Origin: Anaerolineae bacterium
GTDB lineage: Bacteria; Chloroflexota; Anaerolineae; B4-G1; DUEL01
Length of the DNA stretch: 64,000 bases
Direction of reading: 5' to 3'
NCBI GenBank assembly: GCA_034434635.1
Contig: DAOTYX010000079.1
Location: 16,212 to 80,211, forward strand
Shown here: one piece after another, positions 4,126-42,886 of the stretch
Numbering within the stretch: position 1 is the first letter of the stretch
How the letters are laid out: every line of letters begins with the position of its first letter
Position numbers and translations under genes: made by a program
Notes under the pieces: model-generated
What the model saw: the letters and a program-made list of their open reading frames with translations, nothing else
Databases searched by the model: none
What the model was told of the DNA's origin: nothing

Positions 4126-5298
4126 TTGTGGTTCTGGGGGCAGATGGTGTCTCTCTTTGGCACCTGGATGCAGTCCACTGCCCAGGGCTATCTGGTTTAC
4201 GAGTTGACCCGCTCGCCTGCCTATCTGGGGTACGTCAGTTTTGCCTCCGGCGTCCCGACCTGGCTGTTCATGCTCTACGCCGGCGTCATCGCCGACCGCA
4301 TCCCCCGGCGCACGCTGCTGCTCATCACCCAAAGCAGCATGATGCTGCTGGCCTTCATCCTGGCCGGGTTGACCTTTGGCGGCGTCGTGCAGCCGTGGCA
4401 CATCGTCATCCTGGCCGCCGGCCTGGGCGTGGCGAACGCCTTCGACGCCCCAGCCCGCCTGGCCTTCGTGCCGGAACTGGTAGAACAGCGGGAAGACCTG
4501 ACCAACGCCATCGCGCTGAACGCGACGATGTTCAACACAGCGACGATGATCGGCCCGGCGGTGGCCGGGATGGCTTACTCCCTCTTCGGGCCAGGATGGT
4601 GCTTCACCATCAACGGCCTCTCCTTCCTCGCCGTTATCGCCGCGCTGCTGCGCATGCGGTTAGCCTCTCCCGCACCCTCCTCCAACCCGCGCCGCGCCAT
4701 CCTCCCAGAATTGCGCGCCGGGTTCCGCTACGTCATCGCCCACCCCACCATCCGCCTGCTGATCGGCCTGATCGCCATCGCCAGCCTTTTCGGCGTCTCC
4801 TTCGTCACGCTGATGCCAGCCTGGGCGGTCAACGTGCTGCGGGGGGATGCCACCACCAACGGACTGCTCCTTTCGGCGCGGGGGACAGGAGCGCTCATCA
4901 GTGCCCTGGGTATCGCCTCACTGGGCCGCTTCCGGTTCAAGGGGCGCCTGCTGACCGTGGGCACGTTCGTCTTCCCCATCGCCCTGCTGGTCTTCGCGCA
5001 GGTGCGCTGGTTGCCGCTCTCTATGGCCATCCTGGTGGTCGTGGGGGCTTCAATGGTGCTGGTCTTGAACCTGGCCAACGCTCTGGTTCAGACCGAGGCA
5101 GCGGACGAACTGCGTGGGCGGGTGATGAGCATCTACAGCCTGCTCTTCTTCGGCCTGATGCCACTGGGCTCGCTGTGGGTCGGTACGTTGGCCGACCACA
5201 CCAGCGAGCCCATCACGTTGACCATCGGGGCGCTGATCACCCTGGGTTGCGCCGCGCTGGTCTGGCTATTCGCTCCGCGGTTGCGCGCGCTGCCCTGA
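4126..5298 (+). CDS. MFS transporter
   Basis: Twelve predicted TM segments. The N-terminus ALRYRNYRLWFWGQ matches the conserved start of the MFS_3/EntS-like families. The ORF track uses a TTG start. No in-frame ATG or GTG lies upstream, so the start is uncertain (4054..4144). Confidence 0.65.
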   Translation: MWFWGQMVSLFGTWMQSTAQGYLVYELTRSPAYLGYVSFASGVPTWLFMLYAGVIADRIPRRTLLLITQSSMMLLAFILAGLTFGGVVQPWHIVILAAGLGVANAFDAPARLAFVPELVEQREDLTNAIALNATMFNTATMIGPAVAGMAYSLFGPGWCFTINGLSFLAVIAALLRMRLASPAPSSNPRRAILPELRAGFRYVIAHPTIRLLIGLIAIASLFGVSFVTLMPAWAVNVLRGDATTNGLLLSARGTGALISALGIASLGRFRFKGRLLTVGTFVFPIALLVFAQVRWLPLSMAILVVVGASMVLVLNLANALVQTEAADELRGRVMSIYSLLFFGLMPLGSLWVGTLADHTSEPITLTIGALITLGCAALVWLFAPRLRALP

Positions 5299-5380: not shown

Positions 5381-6676
5381 TCAGGACACCTGCGCCGCCC
5401 GTTCCCGCTCCGCCCGCTCGCGCATCTGCTGGCGCAGCGTGTGGATGTCGGTCGGCAGCAGGTAGGCAGCCACGAAGAAGAAGGCCGCGCACAGCACCCA
5501 GGTGGAGACGCAGATGAGCAGGATGGCGTTGTGCAGCGAGGAGCGCACAGCGATCAGTCCGGCTATCAACGGCGCCAGCGCCGCTCCTGCCGACTCGATG
5601 AAACTCTCGATGGCCAGGGCGGTGCTGCGTACCTCTGGCAGGGTGATGTCGTACACCGTGGAGACGACATTGGGCGCAGCGAAGGGGATGAACAGGGCGG
5701 TCAGGCACAGCAGGCCCATGAACAAGCCGCGATTGTCGAGCGGGACGTTGAGCGTCAGCGTGAGCAGGATCGCCCCCAGGAGCACCGCCGTGGCGGAGAC
5801 CAGCGCCCGGCCGCGCGGCGTGCGCTTGAAGAAGAAGTCCCCTGTCGCCCCGCCGACGAAATAACCCGCCGCCAGCACCAGCACCGCCGGAACCATCGTC
5901 GTGAAGACCGCCTCCGACGGATACCCCCGTTCCGTCTCCAGGTAGCGGAAGAACCAGTAGGTGATGACGTTCCACGGGAAGACGCCGAAGAAGCCCTGCA
6001 CGAAGATCAGCAGCAGGCTGCGCTTGCGGAACAGGTCCCCGGCCAGCCGCCAGTTGAAGCGATAGACGCCGATCCGCTCCAGGTCCTCCAATTCTGGTTC
6101 GCTCTTACCACGAGGGGCCTCGCGCACCCCAAAGAAGATGACCACTGCCAGGAGGATGCCCAGCGAGCCAGTGATGTAGAACACCCCACGCCAGCCGATC
6201 ATGCCGCTAAGCAGCAAGCCCAGGATCATCCCCAGCAGGTAGCCCAGGGGCGCGGTCAACTGGAGGATGCCGTAGATACGGCTGCGCACCTGCGGCGGGA
6301 AGTAGTCGGCGATCAGGCTGTAGAGGCCAGGATAACTGGAGTCGTCAATGCCGGTGGAGGCGCGGGTGGCCAGGAAGGACGGGTAGGTGCGCACGACCGC
6401 GCTGAGCCAGGTGGTGGCTCCCCAGATGAACGAGGCCAGCGCCAGCAGTTTGGAGCGCGCGTACCGGTCATACAGGTACCCCCACAGCGGGTAGAAGATG
6501 ACGCCGACGATCAGCGCGCCGGTGAAGACCGCTCCCATCTGCGCCTCGTTGATGCCGAAGGTCTCCATGATCGGAGTGGTGAGCGGTCCGATGAGCAGTT
6601 TGTCCGCCTGATGCAACAGCATGAAGCAGAAGAATACTACAACGACGAACCAGCGGTGCCGTGATGACGCACTCAT
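5381..6676 (-). CDS. MFS transporter
   Basis: 431 aa with 12 TM segments and MFS motifs (GPLTTPIMETFG, LWGYLYDRYARSK). The long plus-strand ORF 5327..6664 is its antisense shadow. Confidence 0.75.
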   Translation of the reverse strand: MSASSRHRWFVVVVFFCFMLLHQADKLLIGPLTTPIMETFGINEAQMGAVFTGALIVGVIFYPLWGYLYDRYARSKLLALASFIWGATTWLSAVVRTYPSFLATRASTGIDDSSYPGLYSLIADYFPPQVRSRIYGILQLTAPLGYLLGMILGLLLSGMIGWRGVFYITGSLGILLAVVIFFGVREAPRGKSEPELEDLERIGVYRFNWRLAGDLFRKRSLLLIFVQGFFGVFPWNVITYWFFRYLETERGYPSEAVFTTMVPAVLVLAAGYFVGGATGDFFFKRTPRGRALVSATAVLLGAILLTLTLNVPLDNRGLFMGLLCLTALFIPFAAPNVVSTVYDITLPEVRSTALAIESFIESAGAALAPLIAGLIAVRSSLHNAILLICVSTWVLCAAFFFVAAYLLPTDIHTLRQQMRERAERERAAQVS

Positions 6677-35851: not shown

Positions 35852-35924
<73 letters not shown>

Positions 35925-35964: not shown

Positions 35965-36038
35965 GGGCCCGTAGCGCAGTCTGGGAGCGCGTCTCAATGG
36001 CATTGAGAAGGCCGAGGGTTCGAATCCCTCCGGGTCCA
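35965..36038 (+). tRNA. tRNA-Ala (anticodon GGC)
   Basis: Acceptor GGGCCCG/CGGGTCC with G3:U70. D arm GCGC-AGTCTGGGA-GCGC. Anticodon arm TCTCA-ATGGCAT-TGAGA. T arm GAGGG-TTCGAAT-CCCTC. Discriminator A. Confidence 0.9.
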
Positions 36039-37832: not shown

Positions 37833-40253
37833 ATGCGTATAGAACGTCGTCAACTCCTGGGCATCTTTCTGGTCAGCCTGAGCGCGCTCACCCTGGAAGT
37901 CGTGCTCACGCGCATCTTCTCCGTGACGATGTGGTACCACTTCGCCTTTCTCGCCGTCTCCCTGGCGTTGATGGGCAGCGCCGTGGCCGGAGTGGTGCTC
38001 TACTTTCTCCCCGCCGTCGCTCGACCGGAGAACGCCCGCCGATGGATCGGGCTGGCGGCCCTGGGGCTGGCCCTGGCGGTGCCACTGGCGTTCCTCATCT
38101 ATCTGCGCATCCCGTTTCAGGTGACCCTCAACCGCACCGGCCTCTCGTGGCTGCAGGCGTTCTGGCTGGCGCTGATCTACCTCGACCTGATGGTGCCCTT
38201 CTTCCTCTCCGGCTTTACGCTCTCGCTGGCCCTCTCCGCCTGGGCGGAGCAGGCCGGACGGGTCTACTGGGCCGATTTGAGCGGGGCAGCGCTGGGTTGC
38301 CTCTTCAGCATCGTCGCGCTGGAGAGGTTGGGCGGCGCGGGGGCCGTGCTGGCAGTGGGCGCCGTGGCCGCGCTGGCCGGTCTGGTGTTGGCGAGCGAAC
38401 GGCGGCGCCGCCTCATCGCTGCGCTCACGCTGCTCACCTTGGCAGTGCTGGTGTGGGGCACCGTCCAGCAGGGCTGGGTGGACATCTCGGTCAACAAGGC
38501 GGGTGGAGAGGAACCGCCGCGTGTTTACGAACACTGGAACTCCTACTCGCGGGTCACGGTCTACCCCGCGGTGGGCTGGCCGCACTTCTGGGGGTTGAGT
38601 TCCCGCTACGAGGGCCCGTCGCTGGGCCACATGCTGATGCTGATTGACGCCATCGCCGGCACGCCGATCCAGGAGTTCCACGGCGACTTCAGTCAGGTGG
38701 CCTTCCTGGAGTACGACCTGCCCTCGTTCGTGTATCGGCTGACCGATCAGCCGGATGTGCTGGTCATCGGCCCCGGCGGGGGCCGAGATGTGCTGGCGGC
38801 GCTGGCGGCAGGGGCCACCCACGTCACGGCGGTGGAGGTCAATCCGGCGGTCATCGCTGCCGTGCGCGGCCCCTTCGCCGAGTACGCCGGTTACCTCTAC
38901 GAGCGGCCGGACGTGACGGTGATCATCAACGACGCCCGCGGCACCATCGCCCGCAGCCCGCAGCGGTACGACGTCATCCAGGCCTCGCTGATTGATACCT
39001 GGGCGGCGGGCGGGTCGGGTGCGTTCGCCCTGTCGGAAAACAGCCTCTACACCGTCGAGGCTTTCGAGGACTACTTCCGCCACCTCAGCGACGACGGCAT
39101 CCTGACCATCTCCCGCTGGTACCTGCCGCAACGCCCGGCGGAGACGCTGCGGCTGCTCTCCACCGGCCTGGCGGCGCTGGAGCGGATGGGGGTGAACGAC
39201 CCCGCAAGGTGCGTGGCGGTGATCAGCCTGCCCGCGCCGCAGATCTCCACCGAGGGGCTGGCGACGGCGCTCTTCCGGCGCACGCCGTTTTCCGACGAGG
39301 AACTGGCCGGCATCCGCCAGGAGGCGGAGGCGTTGGACTTCGCCATCCTCTGGCTGCCGGGGCAGCCGCCGGTTGATGAGGTGGGCGCGCTGATGACCGC
39401 TCCCGACCGCGCCGCCTTCATCGCCGCTTACCCGCTGGACATCTCCCCGGCGACCGACGACCGGCCGTTCTTCTTCAACCTGGTGCGCTTTGGCGATCTG
39501 CTCGACCCGGCGCTCAGCGCCAGCGGGGTCTACCGCACCAGCATGGAGGCCATCCTCATTCTGGCTGTGGTGTTGGGGATCACCACGCTGATCGGGGCGC
39601 TGTTCGTCCTCCTGCCGCTGGCACTGGGGGCGAAACGGCGCGGGTTGGCGCGGCCTCCAGCGCGGCTGCTGGCTTACTTCGGCCTGCTGGGGGTGGGCTT
39701 CATGCTCGTGGAGATGCCCACTATCCAGCGGCTCACCATCTACCTGGGCCGGCCGGTCTACAGCCTGGCGATGGTGCTCTTCTCACTGTTGCTGTTCAGC
39801 GGGCTGGGCAGCCTGTGGAGCGGACGGCGCACCGAAGAGGGCCTGCCCCGTCGGCTGGCCTGGCTCTTCGGGTTGCTGGCGGCGCTGACGGCGTTGCAGG
39901 CACTGGGCGGACCGTGGCTGCTCCAACAGACAGAGGGCTGGCCCCTCGCCGCCCGCCTGGGGATGACGGTGGGGCTGCTGGCCCCGTTGGGCTTCCTGAT
40001 GGGGATGCCTTTCCCCTCCGGGATACGCTGGGCGGGCGTCCATCGGCCCGGGGTGGTGCCGTGGCTGTGGGGCATCAACGGCGTCACCTCGGTGCTCGGC
40101 TCGGCGCTGGGCATCGCCCTGGCCATCCACGTCGGCTTCCGCGCCGTGCTGATCATCGCTGCCCTGTTGTACGGGCTGGCAGGGGCGCTGATCGTGCAGG
40201 AAGTGCGTTGCGGGACCACCGACGACAGACCGCTGACCACGCCGTGCAGATGA
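37833..40253 (+). CDS. Polytopic membrane protein with spermidine-synthase-like (aminopropyltransferase/methyltransferase fold) domain
   Basis: ~7 N-terminal TM helices. A central LVIGPGGGRDVLAALAAGATHVTAVEVNPAVIA…DVIQASLIDTW matches the spermidine synthase fold. More TM helices follow at the C-terminus. Confidence 0.6.
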   Translation: MRIERRQLLGIFLVSLSALTLEVVLTRIFSVTMWYHFAFLAVSLALMGSAVAGVVLYFLPAVARPENARRWIGLAALGLALAVPLAFLIYLRIPFQVTLNRTGLSWLQAFWLALIYLDLMVPFFLSGFTLSLALSAWAEQAGRVYWADLSGAALGCLFSIVALERLGGAGAVLAVGAVAALAGLVLASERRRRLIAALTLLTLAVLVWGTVQQGWVDISVNKAGGEEPPRVYEHWNSYSRVTVYPAVGWPHFWGLSSRYEGPSLGHMLMLIDAIAGTPIQEFHGDFSQVAFLEYDLPSFVYRLTDQPDVLVIGPGGGRDVLAALAAGATHVTAVEVNPAVIAAVRGPFAEYAGYLYERPDVTVIINDARGTIARSPQRYDVIQASLIDTWAAGGSGAFALSENSLYTVEAFEDYFRHLSDDGILTISRWYLPQRPAETLRLLSTGLAALERMGVNDPARCVAVISLPAPQISTEGLATALFRRTPFSDEELAGIRQEAEALDFAILWLPGQPPVDEVGALMTAPDRAAFIAAYPLDISPATDDRPFFFNLVRFGDLLDPALSASGVYRTSMEAILILAVVLGITTLIGALFVLLPLALGAKRRGLARPPARLLAYFGLLGVGFMLVEMPTIQRLTIYLGRPVYSLAMVLFSLLLFSGLGSLWSGRRTEEGLPRRLAWLFGLLAALTALQALGGPWLLQQTEGWPLAARLGMTVGLLAPLGFLMGMPFPSGIRWAGVHRPGVVPWLWGINGVTSVLGSALGIALAIHVGFRAVLIIAALLYGLAGALIVQEVRCGTTDDRPLTTPCR

Positions 40254-41299
40254 GTGAGAGGCAACAACCCTTGCGCGTCGTCGCTTACCATGACCCCGCC
40301 GCCTTCGACTACCTGGCGGAGGAGTGGAGCAGTCTGTTGCATCGCTCCGCCGCCGACAGCCCCTTCCTCTCCCCCGCCTATCTGCACGCCTGGTGGCGCC
40401 ATCTGGGCGAAGGAGAACTGCTCCTGCTGACCGCCCGTGCGGACACCGCACTGGTCGGCGTGGCCCCGCTCTTCGCGGTCGAGCGGGCCGGCGCTGGCTC
40501 GCTCTTGCGCGTCGTCGGCTGCGAGGAGGTATCCGACTACCTGGACTGGATCGCCGCGCCAGGACAGGAGGAAGCGGTGCTGGAGGCATTGCTGGCATTC
40601 CTGGCCAGCCCCATGGCGCCGCCGTGGACGACGCTGGTGCTGTGCAACGTCCACCACGACTCCCCCACCCTGCGCCTGTTGCCCGCGCAGGCCGCCGCGC
40701 GCGGCTGGCCGGTGGCGACGGAGGTACAGGAGGTCTGCCCGGTGGTGACCCTGCCGGCCACCTGGGAGGAGTACCTGGCCGCGCTGGACAGCAAGGACCG
40801 TCACGAACTGCGCCGCAAACTGCGCCGGGCGGAGGCCGCCGAAGGGCTGCACTGGTACCTGGTGGGGCCGGAAGATGACCTGGACACAGCGGCGGAGGAC
40901 TTCCTGACGTTGATGGCACGCAGTTCACCCGCCAAGGCAGCCTTCCTCACCCCGCCGATGCGCGCCTTCTTCCACGAACTGACCCGCGTCGCCGCGGCCA
41001 ACGGCTGGCTGCAACTGGCTTTCCTGGAACTGGACGGGCGTCCGCTGGCCGCTTACTTCAACTTCGTCTACAACAACCGCGTGCTGGTCTACAACTCCGG
41101 GCTCGACTGGCAGGCGGACCCCGGCCTGGGCGCGGGCATCGTCCTCACCGCCTTCCTTATCCGCCATGCTATCGAGGAGGGGCGCCAGGCCTACGACTTC
41201 CTGCGCGGCAGGGAGGCATACAAGTACCGCTTCGGCGGCCAGGACGTGCCGGTACACCGCATCACGATCACGGCTCAACCGGGCGGCACCCATACGTGA
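40250..41299 (+). CDS. GNAT-fold FemAB/BioF2-like acyl/aminoacyl-transferase family protein
   Basis: The ATG overlaps the upstream stop (ATGA). 349 aa with C-terminal AYFNFVYNNRVLVYNSGLDW…AYDFLRGREAYKYRFG typical of the Acetyltransf_6 (FemAB-like) family. Confidence 0.55.
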   Translation: MSERQQPLRVVAYHDPAAFDYLAEEWSSLLHRSAADSPFLSPAYLHAWWRHLGEGELLLLTARADTALVGVAPLFAVERAGAGSLLRVVGCEEVSDYLDWIAAPGQEEAVLEALLAFLASPMAPPWTTLVLCNVHHDSPTLRLLPAQAAARGWPVATEVQEVCPVVTLPATWEEYLAALDSKDRHELRRKLRRAEAAEGLHWYLVGPEDDLDTAAEDFLTLMARSSPAKAAFLTPPMRAFFHELTRVAAANGWLQLAFLELDGRPLAAYFNFVYNNRVLVYNSGLDWQADPGLGAGIVLTAFLIRHAIEEGRQAYDFLRGREAYKYRFGGQDVPVHRITITAQPGGTHT

Positions 41300-41436
41300 C
41301 GACAGACCACAGACCACAGACCACGGACCACGGATCACAGACCACAGACCATCAAGTACAGTTCGTCATCGTGGTCCGTCGTCCGTCGTCCGTGGTCCGT
41401 CGTCCGCGGCCCGTCGTCCGTCGTCCGTGGTCCATC
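41300..41436. repeat. Heptad-repeat palindrome: (CAGACCA/CGGACCA)x8 on the left arm, a 15-nt centre, and (TGGTCCG/TCGTCCG)x9 on the right arm
   Basis: Tandem 7-mers read directly. The arms are largely reverse-complementary, giving a potential ~55-bp imperfect stem. It is intergenic between the FemAB-like and PHP genes. ORFs 41296..41505 and 41166..41450 are artefacts of it. Confidence 0.7.
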
Positions 41437-41446
41437 ACAAAGGGGG

Positions 41447-42886
41447 ATGATGAGCGAGATCATACTGAGCGGCCATTTCGACCCCGCCGACCGGGCGAGG
41501 GATGAGTTTCCCCTCTGGCCCTTCACTGTGCCGTCGGGCGTGAGACGGCTGCACGTCGCCTACGAGTTCAGCGACCCGTTGAGCGCCGATAAGGCCGGCT
41601 ACGAGGAAGGAAACATCGTGGACATTGGGCTGTTCGACCCCCGCGGGGCGGAGTTCCTGCGCGGGCGCGGCTTCCGCGGCTGGAGCGGCACCGCCCGCCA
41701 CCAGGTGACCATCGGTCCGACGGAAGCCACCCCTGGCTACCTGCCCGGCCCTATCCAGCCTGGCACCTGGCATGTGCTGCTGGGCCTGTATCAACTGGCC
41801 CCGCAGGGGTGCGATGTCCGCGTGACGATCCGCTTTGAGCCGGCTGAGCCTGGCGATACCGCCCCTCTGGCGGTGCCACTGCCCTGCCCGTTCGATCATG
41901 CGCCGCTGGCCACCGGACCGCGCTGGTTCCGCGGCGACCTGCACGCCCACAGCCATCACTCCGACGGCACCGCGCCGTTGGAGGACCTGGTCGCAGCGGC
42001 GCAGGCGCAGGGGCTGGACTTCGTGGCTATCACGGAGCATAACACCGTCAGTCACCTGCCGCTTCTCCGGGGGTTGGCCGGGGGAACCCGCCCCCTGCTG
42101 ATCCCCGGTGTGGAGGTCTCCACCTACCACGGCCACGCCAACGTCTGGCCGATCAGCGACTGGCTGGATTTCCGGTGCAGCAACGACGAGGGGATGGCCG
42201 CCGTGCGTGAGCGGGCGCGAGAGCACGGAGCGCTCTTTTCGGTCAATCATCCGAAGGAGGGCGGCCCAGATTGGGAGTTCGGTTCCTGCTTCGACCCCGA
42301 TTGTATCGAGGTGTGGGGCGCGCCGTGGTTCATCTCCAACTACCAGTCGCTGGCAGTGTGGGACCGACTGCTGCGACAGGGGCGGCGAATCACGGCAGTG
42401 GGCGGTTCGGACAAGCACCAGGCGCCGTTCACCGGCGCGCTGGGCTGGTACGAACTGGGCACCCCTACCACATGGGTCTGGGCCGATGAACTCTCCATCC
42501 CGGCACTCGTCGCCGGACTGCGCTCGGGCCGGGCATTCATCTCCGCCGGACCGGGCGGTCCGCGGGTGGAACTGACCGCCGAAGCGAACGGGCGACAGGC
42601 AGAGATGGGCGACTGCCTGGCTGTCACGCCGGGCACGTCCGTCCGCCTGACCTGCCGCGTGGCCGGGGCCAACGGCTGCCTGCTGCGCCTGGTCTCCGCC
42701 CGGCGGGCGCTGGAAGCGTCAGTGAACAGCAACGACTTCGTGCAGGAGTGGACGGTTGAGCCGGCAGGCGACCTCTACTTCCGCGTCGAGGTCATTGACC
42801 CGCCCGAGGCGCCGTTGGACGAGGAGCCCTCGGCGCTGATGGCCCAGGCGCTCAGCAACCCGATCTATCTGGACGACGGAAGATGA
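41447..42886 (+). CDS. PHP-domain metallo-phosphoesterase (CehA/McbA family)
   Basis: GDLHAHSHHSDGT and AITEHN match PHP domain metal-binding His clusters. RBS AAGGGGGA. Confidence 0.7.
   Translation: MMSEIILSGHFDPADRARDEFPLWPFTVPSGVRRLHVAYEFSDPLSADKAGYEEGNIVDIGLFDPRGAEFLRGRGFRGWSGTARHQVTIGPTEATPGYLPGPIQPGTWHVLLGLYQLAPQGCDVRVTIRFEPAEPGDTAPLAVPLPCPFDHAPLATGPRWFRGDLHAHSHHSDGTAPLEDLVAAAQAQGLDFVAITEHNTVSHLPLLRGLAGGTRPLLIPGVEVSTYHGHANVWPISDWLDFRCSNDEGMAAVRERAREHGALFSVNHPKEGGPDWEFGSCFDPDCIEVWGAPWFISNYQSLAVWDRLLRQGRRITAVGGSDKHQAPFTGALGWYELGTPTTWVWADELSIPALVAGLRSGRAFISAGPGGPRVELTAEANGRQAEMGDCLAVTPGTSVRLTCRVAGANGCLLRLVSARRALEASVNSNDFVQEWTVEPAGDLYFRVEVIDPPEAPLDEEPSALMAQALSNPIYLDDGR

Follow-up and report, generated by a model that had tools for sequence, protein, structure and literature searches.

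A convergent inverted pair of heptanucleotide repeat arrays between a GNAT gene and a PHP gene in an uncultured Chloroflexota bacterium

We analysed a 64-kb stretch of DNA from an uncultured Chloroflexota bacterium, the whole of which is called the window below. Judging by the homologues of its PHP protein, the window belongs to an uncultured Anaerolineae lineage. A GNAT gene with a match to Pfam Acetyltransf_6 (PF13480, E 9.7e-31) was found on the + strand at 40250-41299, and a gene for a PHP / CehA-McbA-like metallohydrolase followed on the same strand at 41447/41450-42886. The space between the two genes was taken up by two arrays of 7-nt units that faced each other. The first heptad began with the last two bases of the GNAT stop codon TGA (41297-41299, + strand), and the PHP ribosome-binding site AAGGGGG, which together with the ATGATG start lay at 41440-41452 (+ strand), began 6 nt past the last heptad. 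Because the array began in the GNAT stop codon and ended 6 nt 5' of the PHP ribosome-binding site, the repeats occupied the entire gap between the two genes.

The initial annotation had described facing heptad arrays between two genes, and both TRF and an inverted-repeat search recovered them; five assemblies carried them, as described below. TRF placed the left arm at 41298-41351 (+ strand) with a period of 7, 7.7 copies, 89% matches and the consensus GACCACA, and the right arm at 41370-41433 (+ strand) with a period of 7, 9.1 copies and 82% matches. The right arm was also scored by TRF as 3.0 copies of a 21-nt period with 86% matches, which revealed a 21-nt super-period. Read 5' to 3', the left-arm units were GACGACA, GACCACA, GACCACA, GACCACG, GACCACG, GATCACA, GACCACA and GACCAtc; the unit was therefore written as GACCAC[A/G], or GACCACR, with GACGACA and GATCACA included as variants. 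The right-arm units were CGTGGTC, CGTCGTC, CGTCGTC, CGTGGTC, CGTCGTC, CGCGGCC, CGTCGTC, CGTCGTC and CGTGGTC in the same direction, and CGTGGTC is the exact complement of GACCACG. The arms were separated by a unique, non-repeat spacer of 18 nt at 41352-41369 (TCAAGTACAGTTCGTCAT), which was the loop of the predicted hairpin. The spacer, which had been given as 15 nt initially, measured 18 nt between the TRF boundaries. In the inverted-repeat search, the inverted arms were 54 nt long (41298-41351 and 41372-41425), 78% complementary and 20 nt apart.

Heptad SSRs consist of head-to-tail 7-nt units in at least 3-4 copies, as both arms did, and are located in non-coding DNA, typically adjoining stop or start codons, as was the element. 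In convergent pairs, one heptad is repeated on opposite strands at close distance, and the arms of the element were 18-20 nt apart. No GGG run was present in either arm, and the G-tract of G-quadruplex repeats such as GGGNATC was accordingly missing. Three repeat-filled ORFs were observed, at 41296-41505 (+ strand), 41166-41450 (+ strand) and 41335-41526 (- strand). The ORFs with TTDH/RRPSSVV repeats that had been dismissed as spurious were thus present, with a third one on the - strand, and we also hold them to be spurious because they overlapped the GNAT and PHP genes and consisted of repeat translation. A stop codon was absent from every frame of GACCACR and its complement, and the ORFs are therefore regarded as by-products of the repeat.

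The view that the element is not a normal terminator was borne out, as the sequence 3' of the stem (AUCACAAAGGGGG) was without a U-tract and the region 40800-42000 contained no terminator-like site. No promoter-like site was found on either strand in the scan of 40800-42000, and GC skew gave no signal for the direction of replication. A search of 40900-41900 with Rfam 15 returned just sub-threshold generic-hairpin matches to miRNA precursor models, the best of which scored 37 bits against a gathering score of 197 and which we rejected as meaningless, and over the whole window only two tRNAs scored above the gathering score. The tRNA genes were located at 35852-35924 and 35965-36038 on the + strand.

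The 14-mer pattern GACCACRGACCACR was matched 18 times in the 64-kb window with up to two mismatches, compared with 2.9 matches expected, and none of 100 shuffles reached 18. A period-7 self-match scan revealed no second period-7 array in the window, and no array of period 4-12 was found elsewhere in the 64 kb at that self-match threshold. The exact 3' junction (ATCACAAAGGGGGATGATGAGCGAG) had no match in a metagenome scan, and in the literature searched no paper contained the GACCACR repeat and nothing specific to Chloroflexi was found. At 40214-40241, we observed four degenerate units (GACCACC, GACGACA, GACCGCT and GACCACG) of the same heptad family as the GACCACR element. These units encoded the final residues TTDDRPLTT of an 806-aa spermidine-synthase-like membrane protein, and they sat immediately 5' of the ATGA overlap between the spermidine-synthase-like gene and the GNAT start. 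Judged from its sequence, this stretch looks like a relic heptad array that was absorbed into the coding tail at the preceding gene junction. The 64 kb read from the source genome held one array and this one 4-unit relic.

Seven further assemblies of the same species were found via cluster members, and the window, L001, L207, L208 and L212 were full-length across the element. The element was present in all five of these independent full-length assemblies with identities of 99.6-99.97%, which indicated that it is real and not an assembly artefact. Compared with the window, L001 was 99.63% identical (39 SNPs and no indel in 10.5 kb), L207 was 99.97% identical (2 SNPs, one of them inside the array), L208 was 99.94% identical (4 SNPs) and L212 was 99.87% identical when the deletion was included (3 SNPs and one 7-nt deletion over 7.4 kb). 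The deletion in L212 removed exactly one left-arm heptad (CACGGAT, ~41329-41335) and was the sole indel in ~31 kb of strain alignments. Copy number had therefore changed by a whole unit, as it does in heptad SSRs, and this loss, together with the arrays of 4 to 41 copies in relatives, supported the suggestion that the arrays are prone to strand slippage. Copy number was identical in the other four full-length assemblies, and because it was nearly invariant among the available strains, slippage appears to be slow at this imperfect array. The contigs of three independent short-read assemblies, L209, L210 and L211, all started at one base inside the right arm, their position 1 corresponding to window 41399. 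The repeat is thus an obstacle to assembly, and array lengths other than those seen may be represented too sparsely. The spacer at 41352-41369 was invariant among the strains. Position 41410 in the right arm was polymorphic: the window and L212 had C there, and the remaining six assemblies had T, which restores the canonical unit.

The long imperfect stem-loop proposed in the initial annotation was predicted on both strands, and the RNA fold was stronger than that of shuffled sequences. As RNA, the top strand folded with -68.4 kcal/mol (z -4.9, 54 pairs) and the bottom strand with -105.0 kcal/mol (z -11.1, 61 pairs, 8 of which were G.U); as ssDNA, the top strand folded with -28.7 kcal/mol (z -1.4) and the bottom strand with -47.4 kcal/mol (z -6.9). 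The strands differed in folding because most of the differences between the arms were transitions, seen as A.C mismatches in the top-strand fold and as G.U pairs in the bottom-strand fold; G.U formed on the bottom strand at every transition difference except one. In the top-strand hairpin, C.C and A.C mismatches recurred in 7-nt phase. The stem irregularities had been described as A.C and G.U in a 7-nt phase, and both the phase and the A.C mismatches were observed, but the top strand combined A.C with C.C, and the G.U pairs arose in the fold of the bottom strand. Extrusion of a stable DNA cruciform, which was also considered, seems unlikely because the top-strand ssDNA did not fold better than shuffled sequences (z -1.4) and the arms were 78% complementary with mismatches every 7 bp.

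The folding advantage of the bottom strand (-105 vs -68 kcal/mol) is not predicted by a purely neutral model. One explanation would be an antisense small RNA or a bottom-strand structure, whose transcript or ssDNA would form a near-continuous 61-pair hairpin. The bottom strand folded better both as RNA and as ssDNA, and the polymorphism at 41410 was neutral for its pairing (G.U vs A-U), as would suit this explanation. However, neither a promoter-like nor a terminator-like site was found on either strand of 40800-42000, the asymmetry amounts to a few independent substitutions spread by homogenisation, and 22 further inverted heptad pairs revealed no consistent link between the better-folding strand and the direction of the genes. 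We consider an antisense role to be highly improbable. The G.U asymmetry was also assessed as a sign of RNA-level selection and was rejected as not significant, as homogenisation of the array leaves ~3-4 independent events, which were counted as ~3 against 1.

The junction between the two genes was compared with those of relatives. The GNAT-PHP-DUF503 cluster was conserved in the closest relatives (PHP identity of at least 69%). The GNAT and PHP genes overlapped or abutted in L002, L124 and L125/L126, with no tandem array or palindrome; the gap was 41-42 nt and repeat-free in L134/L135, and in L123 a 69-nt gap held degenerate ACGTNAA heptads. Relatives with ~70-74% PHP identity had either abutting or overlapping genes or different short-unit repeats at this position. 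Because the junctions of relatives lacked the GACCACR palindrome, the element is young and lineage-specific. It had been argued at the outset that functional significance would be weakened by an invariant copy number and by absence from syntenic relatives, and both were found: copy number was nearly invariant, being identical in four of the five full-length assemblies, and syntenic relatives lacked the element. Nucleotidyltransferase-type genes were inserted between GNAT and PHP in L127, L129, L133 and L160, and an NTase gene paired with a HEPN gene in a toxin-antitoxin-like arrangement was observed within the cluster in L124 (3585-4335). The junctions of the GNAT-PHP-DUF503 cluster are insertion hot spots, and the GNAT/PHP junction is plastic.

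Palindromes of 9-10-nt units with a CACGGAT / ATCCGTG core were observed in L122 (2550-2612), L130 (2640-2735), L131 (2460-2555) and L134 (4200-4330). Those in L122, L130 and L131 straddled the GNAT stop and were followed by a small ORF, and the L134 site was unrelated. The core resembled the rotated heptad CACGGAC of the window. When the window hairpin was compared with the hairpins of CACGGAT units in L122, L130 and L131 for positional homology, only the coding flank aligned, and a MAFFT alignment of the window with L131 gave no convincing homology past this flank. A further palindrome, made of GAATCA(N1-3) units, lay just 5' of the PHP start in L127 (~2890-2990), L130 and L131. L129 (~2960-2992) lacked it despite 97% identity to L127, and these two also differed in the ribosome-binding region.

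The GNAT/PHP junctions of L122, L130 and L131 carried hairpins with other units, which could mean that the structure is selected. The element would then be a cis-acting RNA hairpin in the GNAT-PHP mRNA that sets the relative expression of both genes through an RNase III cut, a 3'-exonuclease block or an RNA polymerase pause, and gain or loss of heptads would tune it by analogy with hmw1A of H. influenzae. In hmw1A, the one case with a studied mechanism, the 5'-UTR folds into a long hairpin of which one arm is a transcribed (ATCTTTC)n array; RNase III cuts this hairpin, and copy number shifts by slippage and tunes expression (PMC12721329). Both systems have a heptamer SSR upstream of a gene that contributes an arm to a long RNA hairpin, which in our case is a predicted one. 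In hmw1A, however, repeats are found in the left arm only and the right arm is G-rich and non-repeat, whereas both arms are repeats here; the hmw1A element is also a promoter-proximal 5'-UTR element of a phase-variable adhesin, and RNase III cleavage was demonstrated there and is a candidate mechanism here (PMC12721329). Apart from this experimental precedent, the sense transcript was predicted to fold stably, the hairpin survived folding in its sequence context, and it ended before the PHP ribosome-binding site, which together with the start codon lay outside the main stem. The majority allele T at 41410 also paired better on the sense strand than C (-73.5 vs -68.4 kcal/mol), and hairpins of other units recurred in relatives both at the junction and, in L127, L130 and L131, 5' of PHP. 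On the other hand, the closest orthologous loci had no such hairpin, and even strains with 97% identity, such as L127 and L129, differed in the hairpins present. Complementarity of the arms was not maintained, as a C.C or A.C mismatch occurred every 7 nt, and there was no U-tract. The GACCACR arrays in other genomes also had no strong orientation bias. Between co-directional genes, 24 were sense and 15 antisense, and a further 13 were convergent and 11 divergent with respect to the flanking genes; these counts show no usable bias, and they are weak because the crude GC3-based gene caller missed the GNAT gene of the window itself. Taken together, an intercistronic RNA hairpin is the best candidate for a function, and we regard a selected hairpin as possible but doubtful.

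The CACGGAT core that CACGGAC resembles was present at this junction in L122, L130 and L131 and at another site in L134, and the resemblance might instead reflect an array of DNA-level binding sites, in which GACCAC / GTCCGT on both strands would recruit a regulator or nucleoid protein. The recurrence of the same heptad family as the 4-unit relic at the preceding junction would fit such an array. No candidate protein is known, however, and the heptads of relatives differed from locus to locus (AATGACC, CTGCGAC and CGTCAAA). In addition, the motif was not enriched elsewhere in the window, with a spacing of 7 bp neighbouring sites would not lie on one side of the double helix, and the window and L131 aligned in the coding flank only. 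A binding-site array is thus very unlikely in our view; the candidate protein-bait arrays for it would be (GACCACG)n and (CACGGATNNN)n.

In relatives, heptads were the prevalent repeat unit. In 477 kb of Anaerolineae PHP loci, we found 43 period-7 arrays, compared with 5-16 arrays for each of the periods 5, 6, 8 and 9. An array of (CTGCGAC/TTGCGAC)n units had 41 copies in L127 (5229-5527), 12 in L122 (5251-5340), 14 in L129 (5253-5357) and 4 each in L128 (3112-3154) and L131 (4819-4863). The contigs that carried it were otherwise ~93-98% identical, and 4, 12, 14 and 41 copies occurred among contigs with 96-98% identity, which indicated that its copy number is hypervariable. This array occupied the gap 5' of an SbcC/Rad50-like gene as far as its start codon, with no visible Shine-Dalgarno sequence before the ATG. 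An (AATGACC)n array, whose unit is the reverse-complement rotation of the cyanobacterial STRR2 heptanucleotide (TTGGTCA), followed the PHP stop and preceded the DUF503 start in relatives. It was observed in L122 (4460-4500), L127, L128 and L130 and also in L157 (5607-5681), directly 5' of the start codons of two different genes and in the sense orientation; both ATG and TGA occur in every frame of this repeat. In-frame (GCAGGAN)n repeats were observed in the variable PHP linker that joins the N-terminal domain to the PHP domain in L137 (3392-3432), L145 (3402-3470) and L157 (3397-3465) and at similar PHP positions in ~15 further loci. Heptad arrays thus spread into coding linkers as well, presumably in steps of 21 nt.

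The GACCACR unit was not confined to this lineage. A scan for exact (GACCACR)3 in one genome per species found at least 119 stretches; by our own calculation, a random 21-mer with this degeneracy would match the same collection ~2 times by chance. The matches listed included Planctomycetota, Verrucomicrobiota, Acidobacteriota, Streptomyces, Bacteroidota, Chloroflexota and others. In the 823 kb around the GACCACR arrays of the matches listed, we found 144 further period-7 arrays with other units, compared with 18-41 arrays for the periods 4, 5, 6 and 8 and 3 for period 9. Among these 144 arrays around the matches listed, 22% were within one mismatch of GACCACR, whereas 3.4% would be so by chance. 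When the period-7 arrays collected, including those around the matches listed, were considered together (309 arrays), neighbouring pairs were inverted in 23 cases and direct in 6, and the inverted pairs typically spanned the gap between ORF ends. In L027, L029 and L044 (Anaerolineae/Anaerolineales, from the matches listed), we found shorter hairpins of the GACCACR unit family with unrelated loops.

Two GACCACA-armed palindromes were observed in L007, an uncultured bacterium, at 4258-4411 and 5694-5845; they were 1.4 kb apart and had a common A/T-rich loop of ~48 nt. The identical loop showed that both derive from one dispersed element with heptad arms, which is possibly mobile. By the same token, the element in the window might be a miniature mobile element of the MITE or REP type that has heptad terminal inverted repeats and was inserted at the GNAT/PHP junction, and it would be in line with an insertion that hairpin repeats are present in one and absent from another of two near-identical relatives, L127 and L129, whose flanks are altered. 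REP/BIME elements and MITEs are likewise extragenic imperfect palindromes between genes of one operon, and REP hairpins stabilise upstream mRNA in the malE-malF operon of E. coli. REPs, however, are 20-40-nt units with many dispersed copies and an associated RAYT transposase, and neither another copy of the element nor any other REP hallmark was found in the 64 kb. MITEs carry target-site duplications; no such duplication or direct repeat was visible at the two ends of the element, which was present as a single copy in the 64 kb. Furthermore, the loops of the Anaerolineae heptad hairpins in the window, L027, L029 and L044 were unrelated, and the strain difference in L212 was slippage of one unit and not an excision. 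We would therefore give a mobile origin of the element very little credence.

The comparison with known systems indicated that the two arrays form a convergent, inverted pair of heptanucleotide SSRs and are a Chloroflexota example of the known class of intergenic heptamer repeats, which many bacteria carry in excess. As summarised in two later papers, no class of long SSRs is as abundant in many prokaryotes as the heptanucleotides, and polymerase slippage was proposed to be their origin (Mrazek, Guo & Shah 2007, in PMC4679880 and PMC4692102). The element shares with the prokaryotic long SSRs of 5-11 nt, as they are portrayed there, the tandem 7-nt units, the intergenic location and the variation by slippage, and an excess of period 7 over neighbouring periods was seen in relatives and in other phyla; Chloroflexota MAGs, the GACCACR unit and the palindromic arrangement lie outside the 2007 survey as those papers present it (PMC4679880, PMC4692102). 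The arrangement was like that in Xanthomonas, where each genome has 70-75 convergent pairs of GGGAATC heptamers that are situated near stop codons or overlap them; most of these pairs are transcribed, their length differs from species to species, and no function has been established for them (Rehm et al. 2015, PMC4692102). In X. campestris and X. axonopodis, as in our element, opposite-strand arrays of one heptad lie by stop codons and are capable of forming a stem-loop or cruciform. In contrast, the Xanthomonas units are G-rich and form G-quadruplexes, whereas GACCACR has no G-tract, and there are ~180 arrays per Xanthomonas genome compared with one array and a relic in 64 kb here (PMC4692102).

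Two further systems of direct arrays were compared. The STRR heptanucleotide repeats of cyanobacteria, cited for Calothrix PCC 7601 in PMC4692102, are also intergenic tandem heptamers of filamentous bacteria, but they belong to a different phylum, have a different unit and have mostly been described as direct arrays. In marine Beggiatoaceae, TAACTGA arrays fill the space up to start codons and have a patchy phylogenetic spread; they comprise 2-6 copies and have a strong forward orientation bias, and nearly all of them are direct, with one indirect repeat reported (PMC4679880). The filling of the gap up to a start codon and the patchy spread are common to both, although TAACTGA has stops in every frame and GACCACR has none (PMC4679880). 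Intergenic heptads, including convergent inverted pairs by stop codons, have thus already been described (PMC4692102, PMC4679880), and the oddity of the element that the initial annotation implied was overstated.

We consider it somewhat probable that the element grew in situ by slippage on an inverted duplication and that for the most part it is tolerated as the by-product of a mutational process acting across the lineage, with any effect exerted via the RNA hairpin. The ancestral GNAT and PHP genes would have abutted or overlapped, which is the state seen in relatives, and a short GACCACG/CGTGGTC palindromic seed may then have arisen at the GNAT stop codon in the lineage of this species. Each arm would have grown and been homogenised separately via replication slippage in steps of 7, 14 and 21 nt, a step that is backed by the one-unit indel among strains and by the hypervariable arrays in relatives. 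Such separate growth and homogenisation would explain that the arms are internally regular yet just 78% complementary. The nearly invariant copy number, the finding of just one array and a relic in the 64 kb, the folding advantage of the bottom strand and the hairpins of other units at this junction in L122, L130 and L131 count against this reading. The resulting insert of 148 nt would uncouple the GNAT and PHP genes, and the co-directional GNAT-PHP transcript would fold into a mismatch-studded hairpin of ~54 pairs that ends just 5' of the PHP ribosome-binding site. In our judgement, if the predicted hairpin has an effect, this would be on processing, stability or partial insulation, and it would have no dedicated sequence-specific function.

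A broader proposal was also considered, in which the short-tandem-unit hairpins at Anaerolineae GNAT/PHP junctions are one selected, slippage-tunable family and the GACCACR arrays found in at least 119 stretches share an unrecognised generator or reader. The members of such a family could be the 7-nt GACCACG units described here, the 9-10-nt CACGGAT units of L122, L130, L131 and L134 and the 8-9-nt GAATCA units found 5' of PHP. Such hairpins might serve as switches for cleavage by RNase III or for processing, or the arrays might be read by a protein that recognises a (G/A)TCCGTG core. We consider this proposal to be unlikely.

Heptanucleotide repeats are already known to be abundant in many bacteria, and convergent pairs of them are known as well; the element alone does not alter knowledge of this class, to which it adds a Chloroflexota member. 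The locus provides a clear-cut natural case in an uncultured Chloroflexota lineage, for which relatives with overlapping or abutting genes serve as empty sites. With these empty sites, the one-unit polymorphism and the hypervariable sister arrays of 4-41 copies, the locus could be used to test whether a hairpin has an effect on operon expression, and the heptad arrays are ready-made strain markers in metagenomes.
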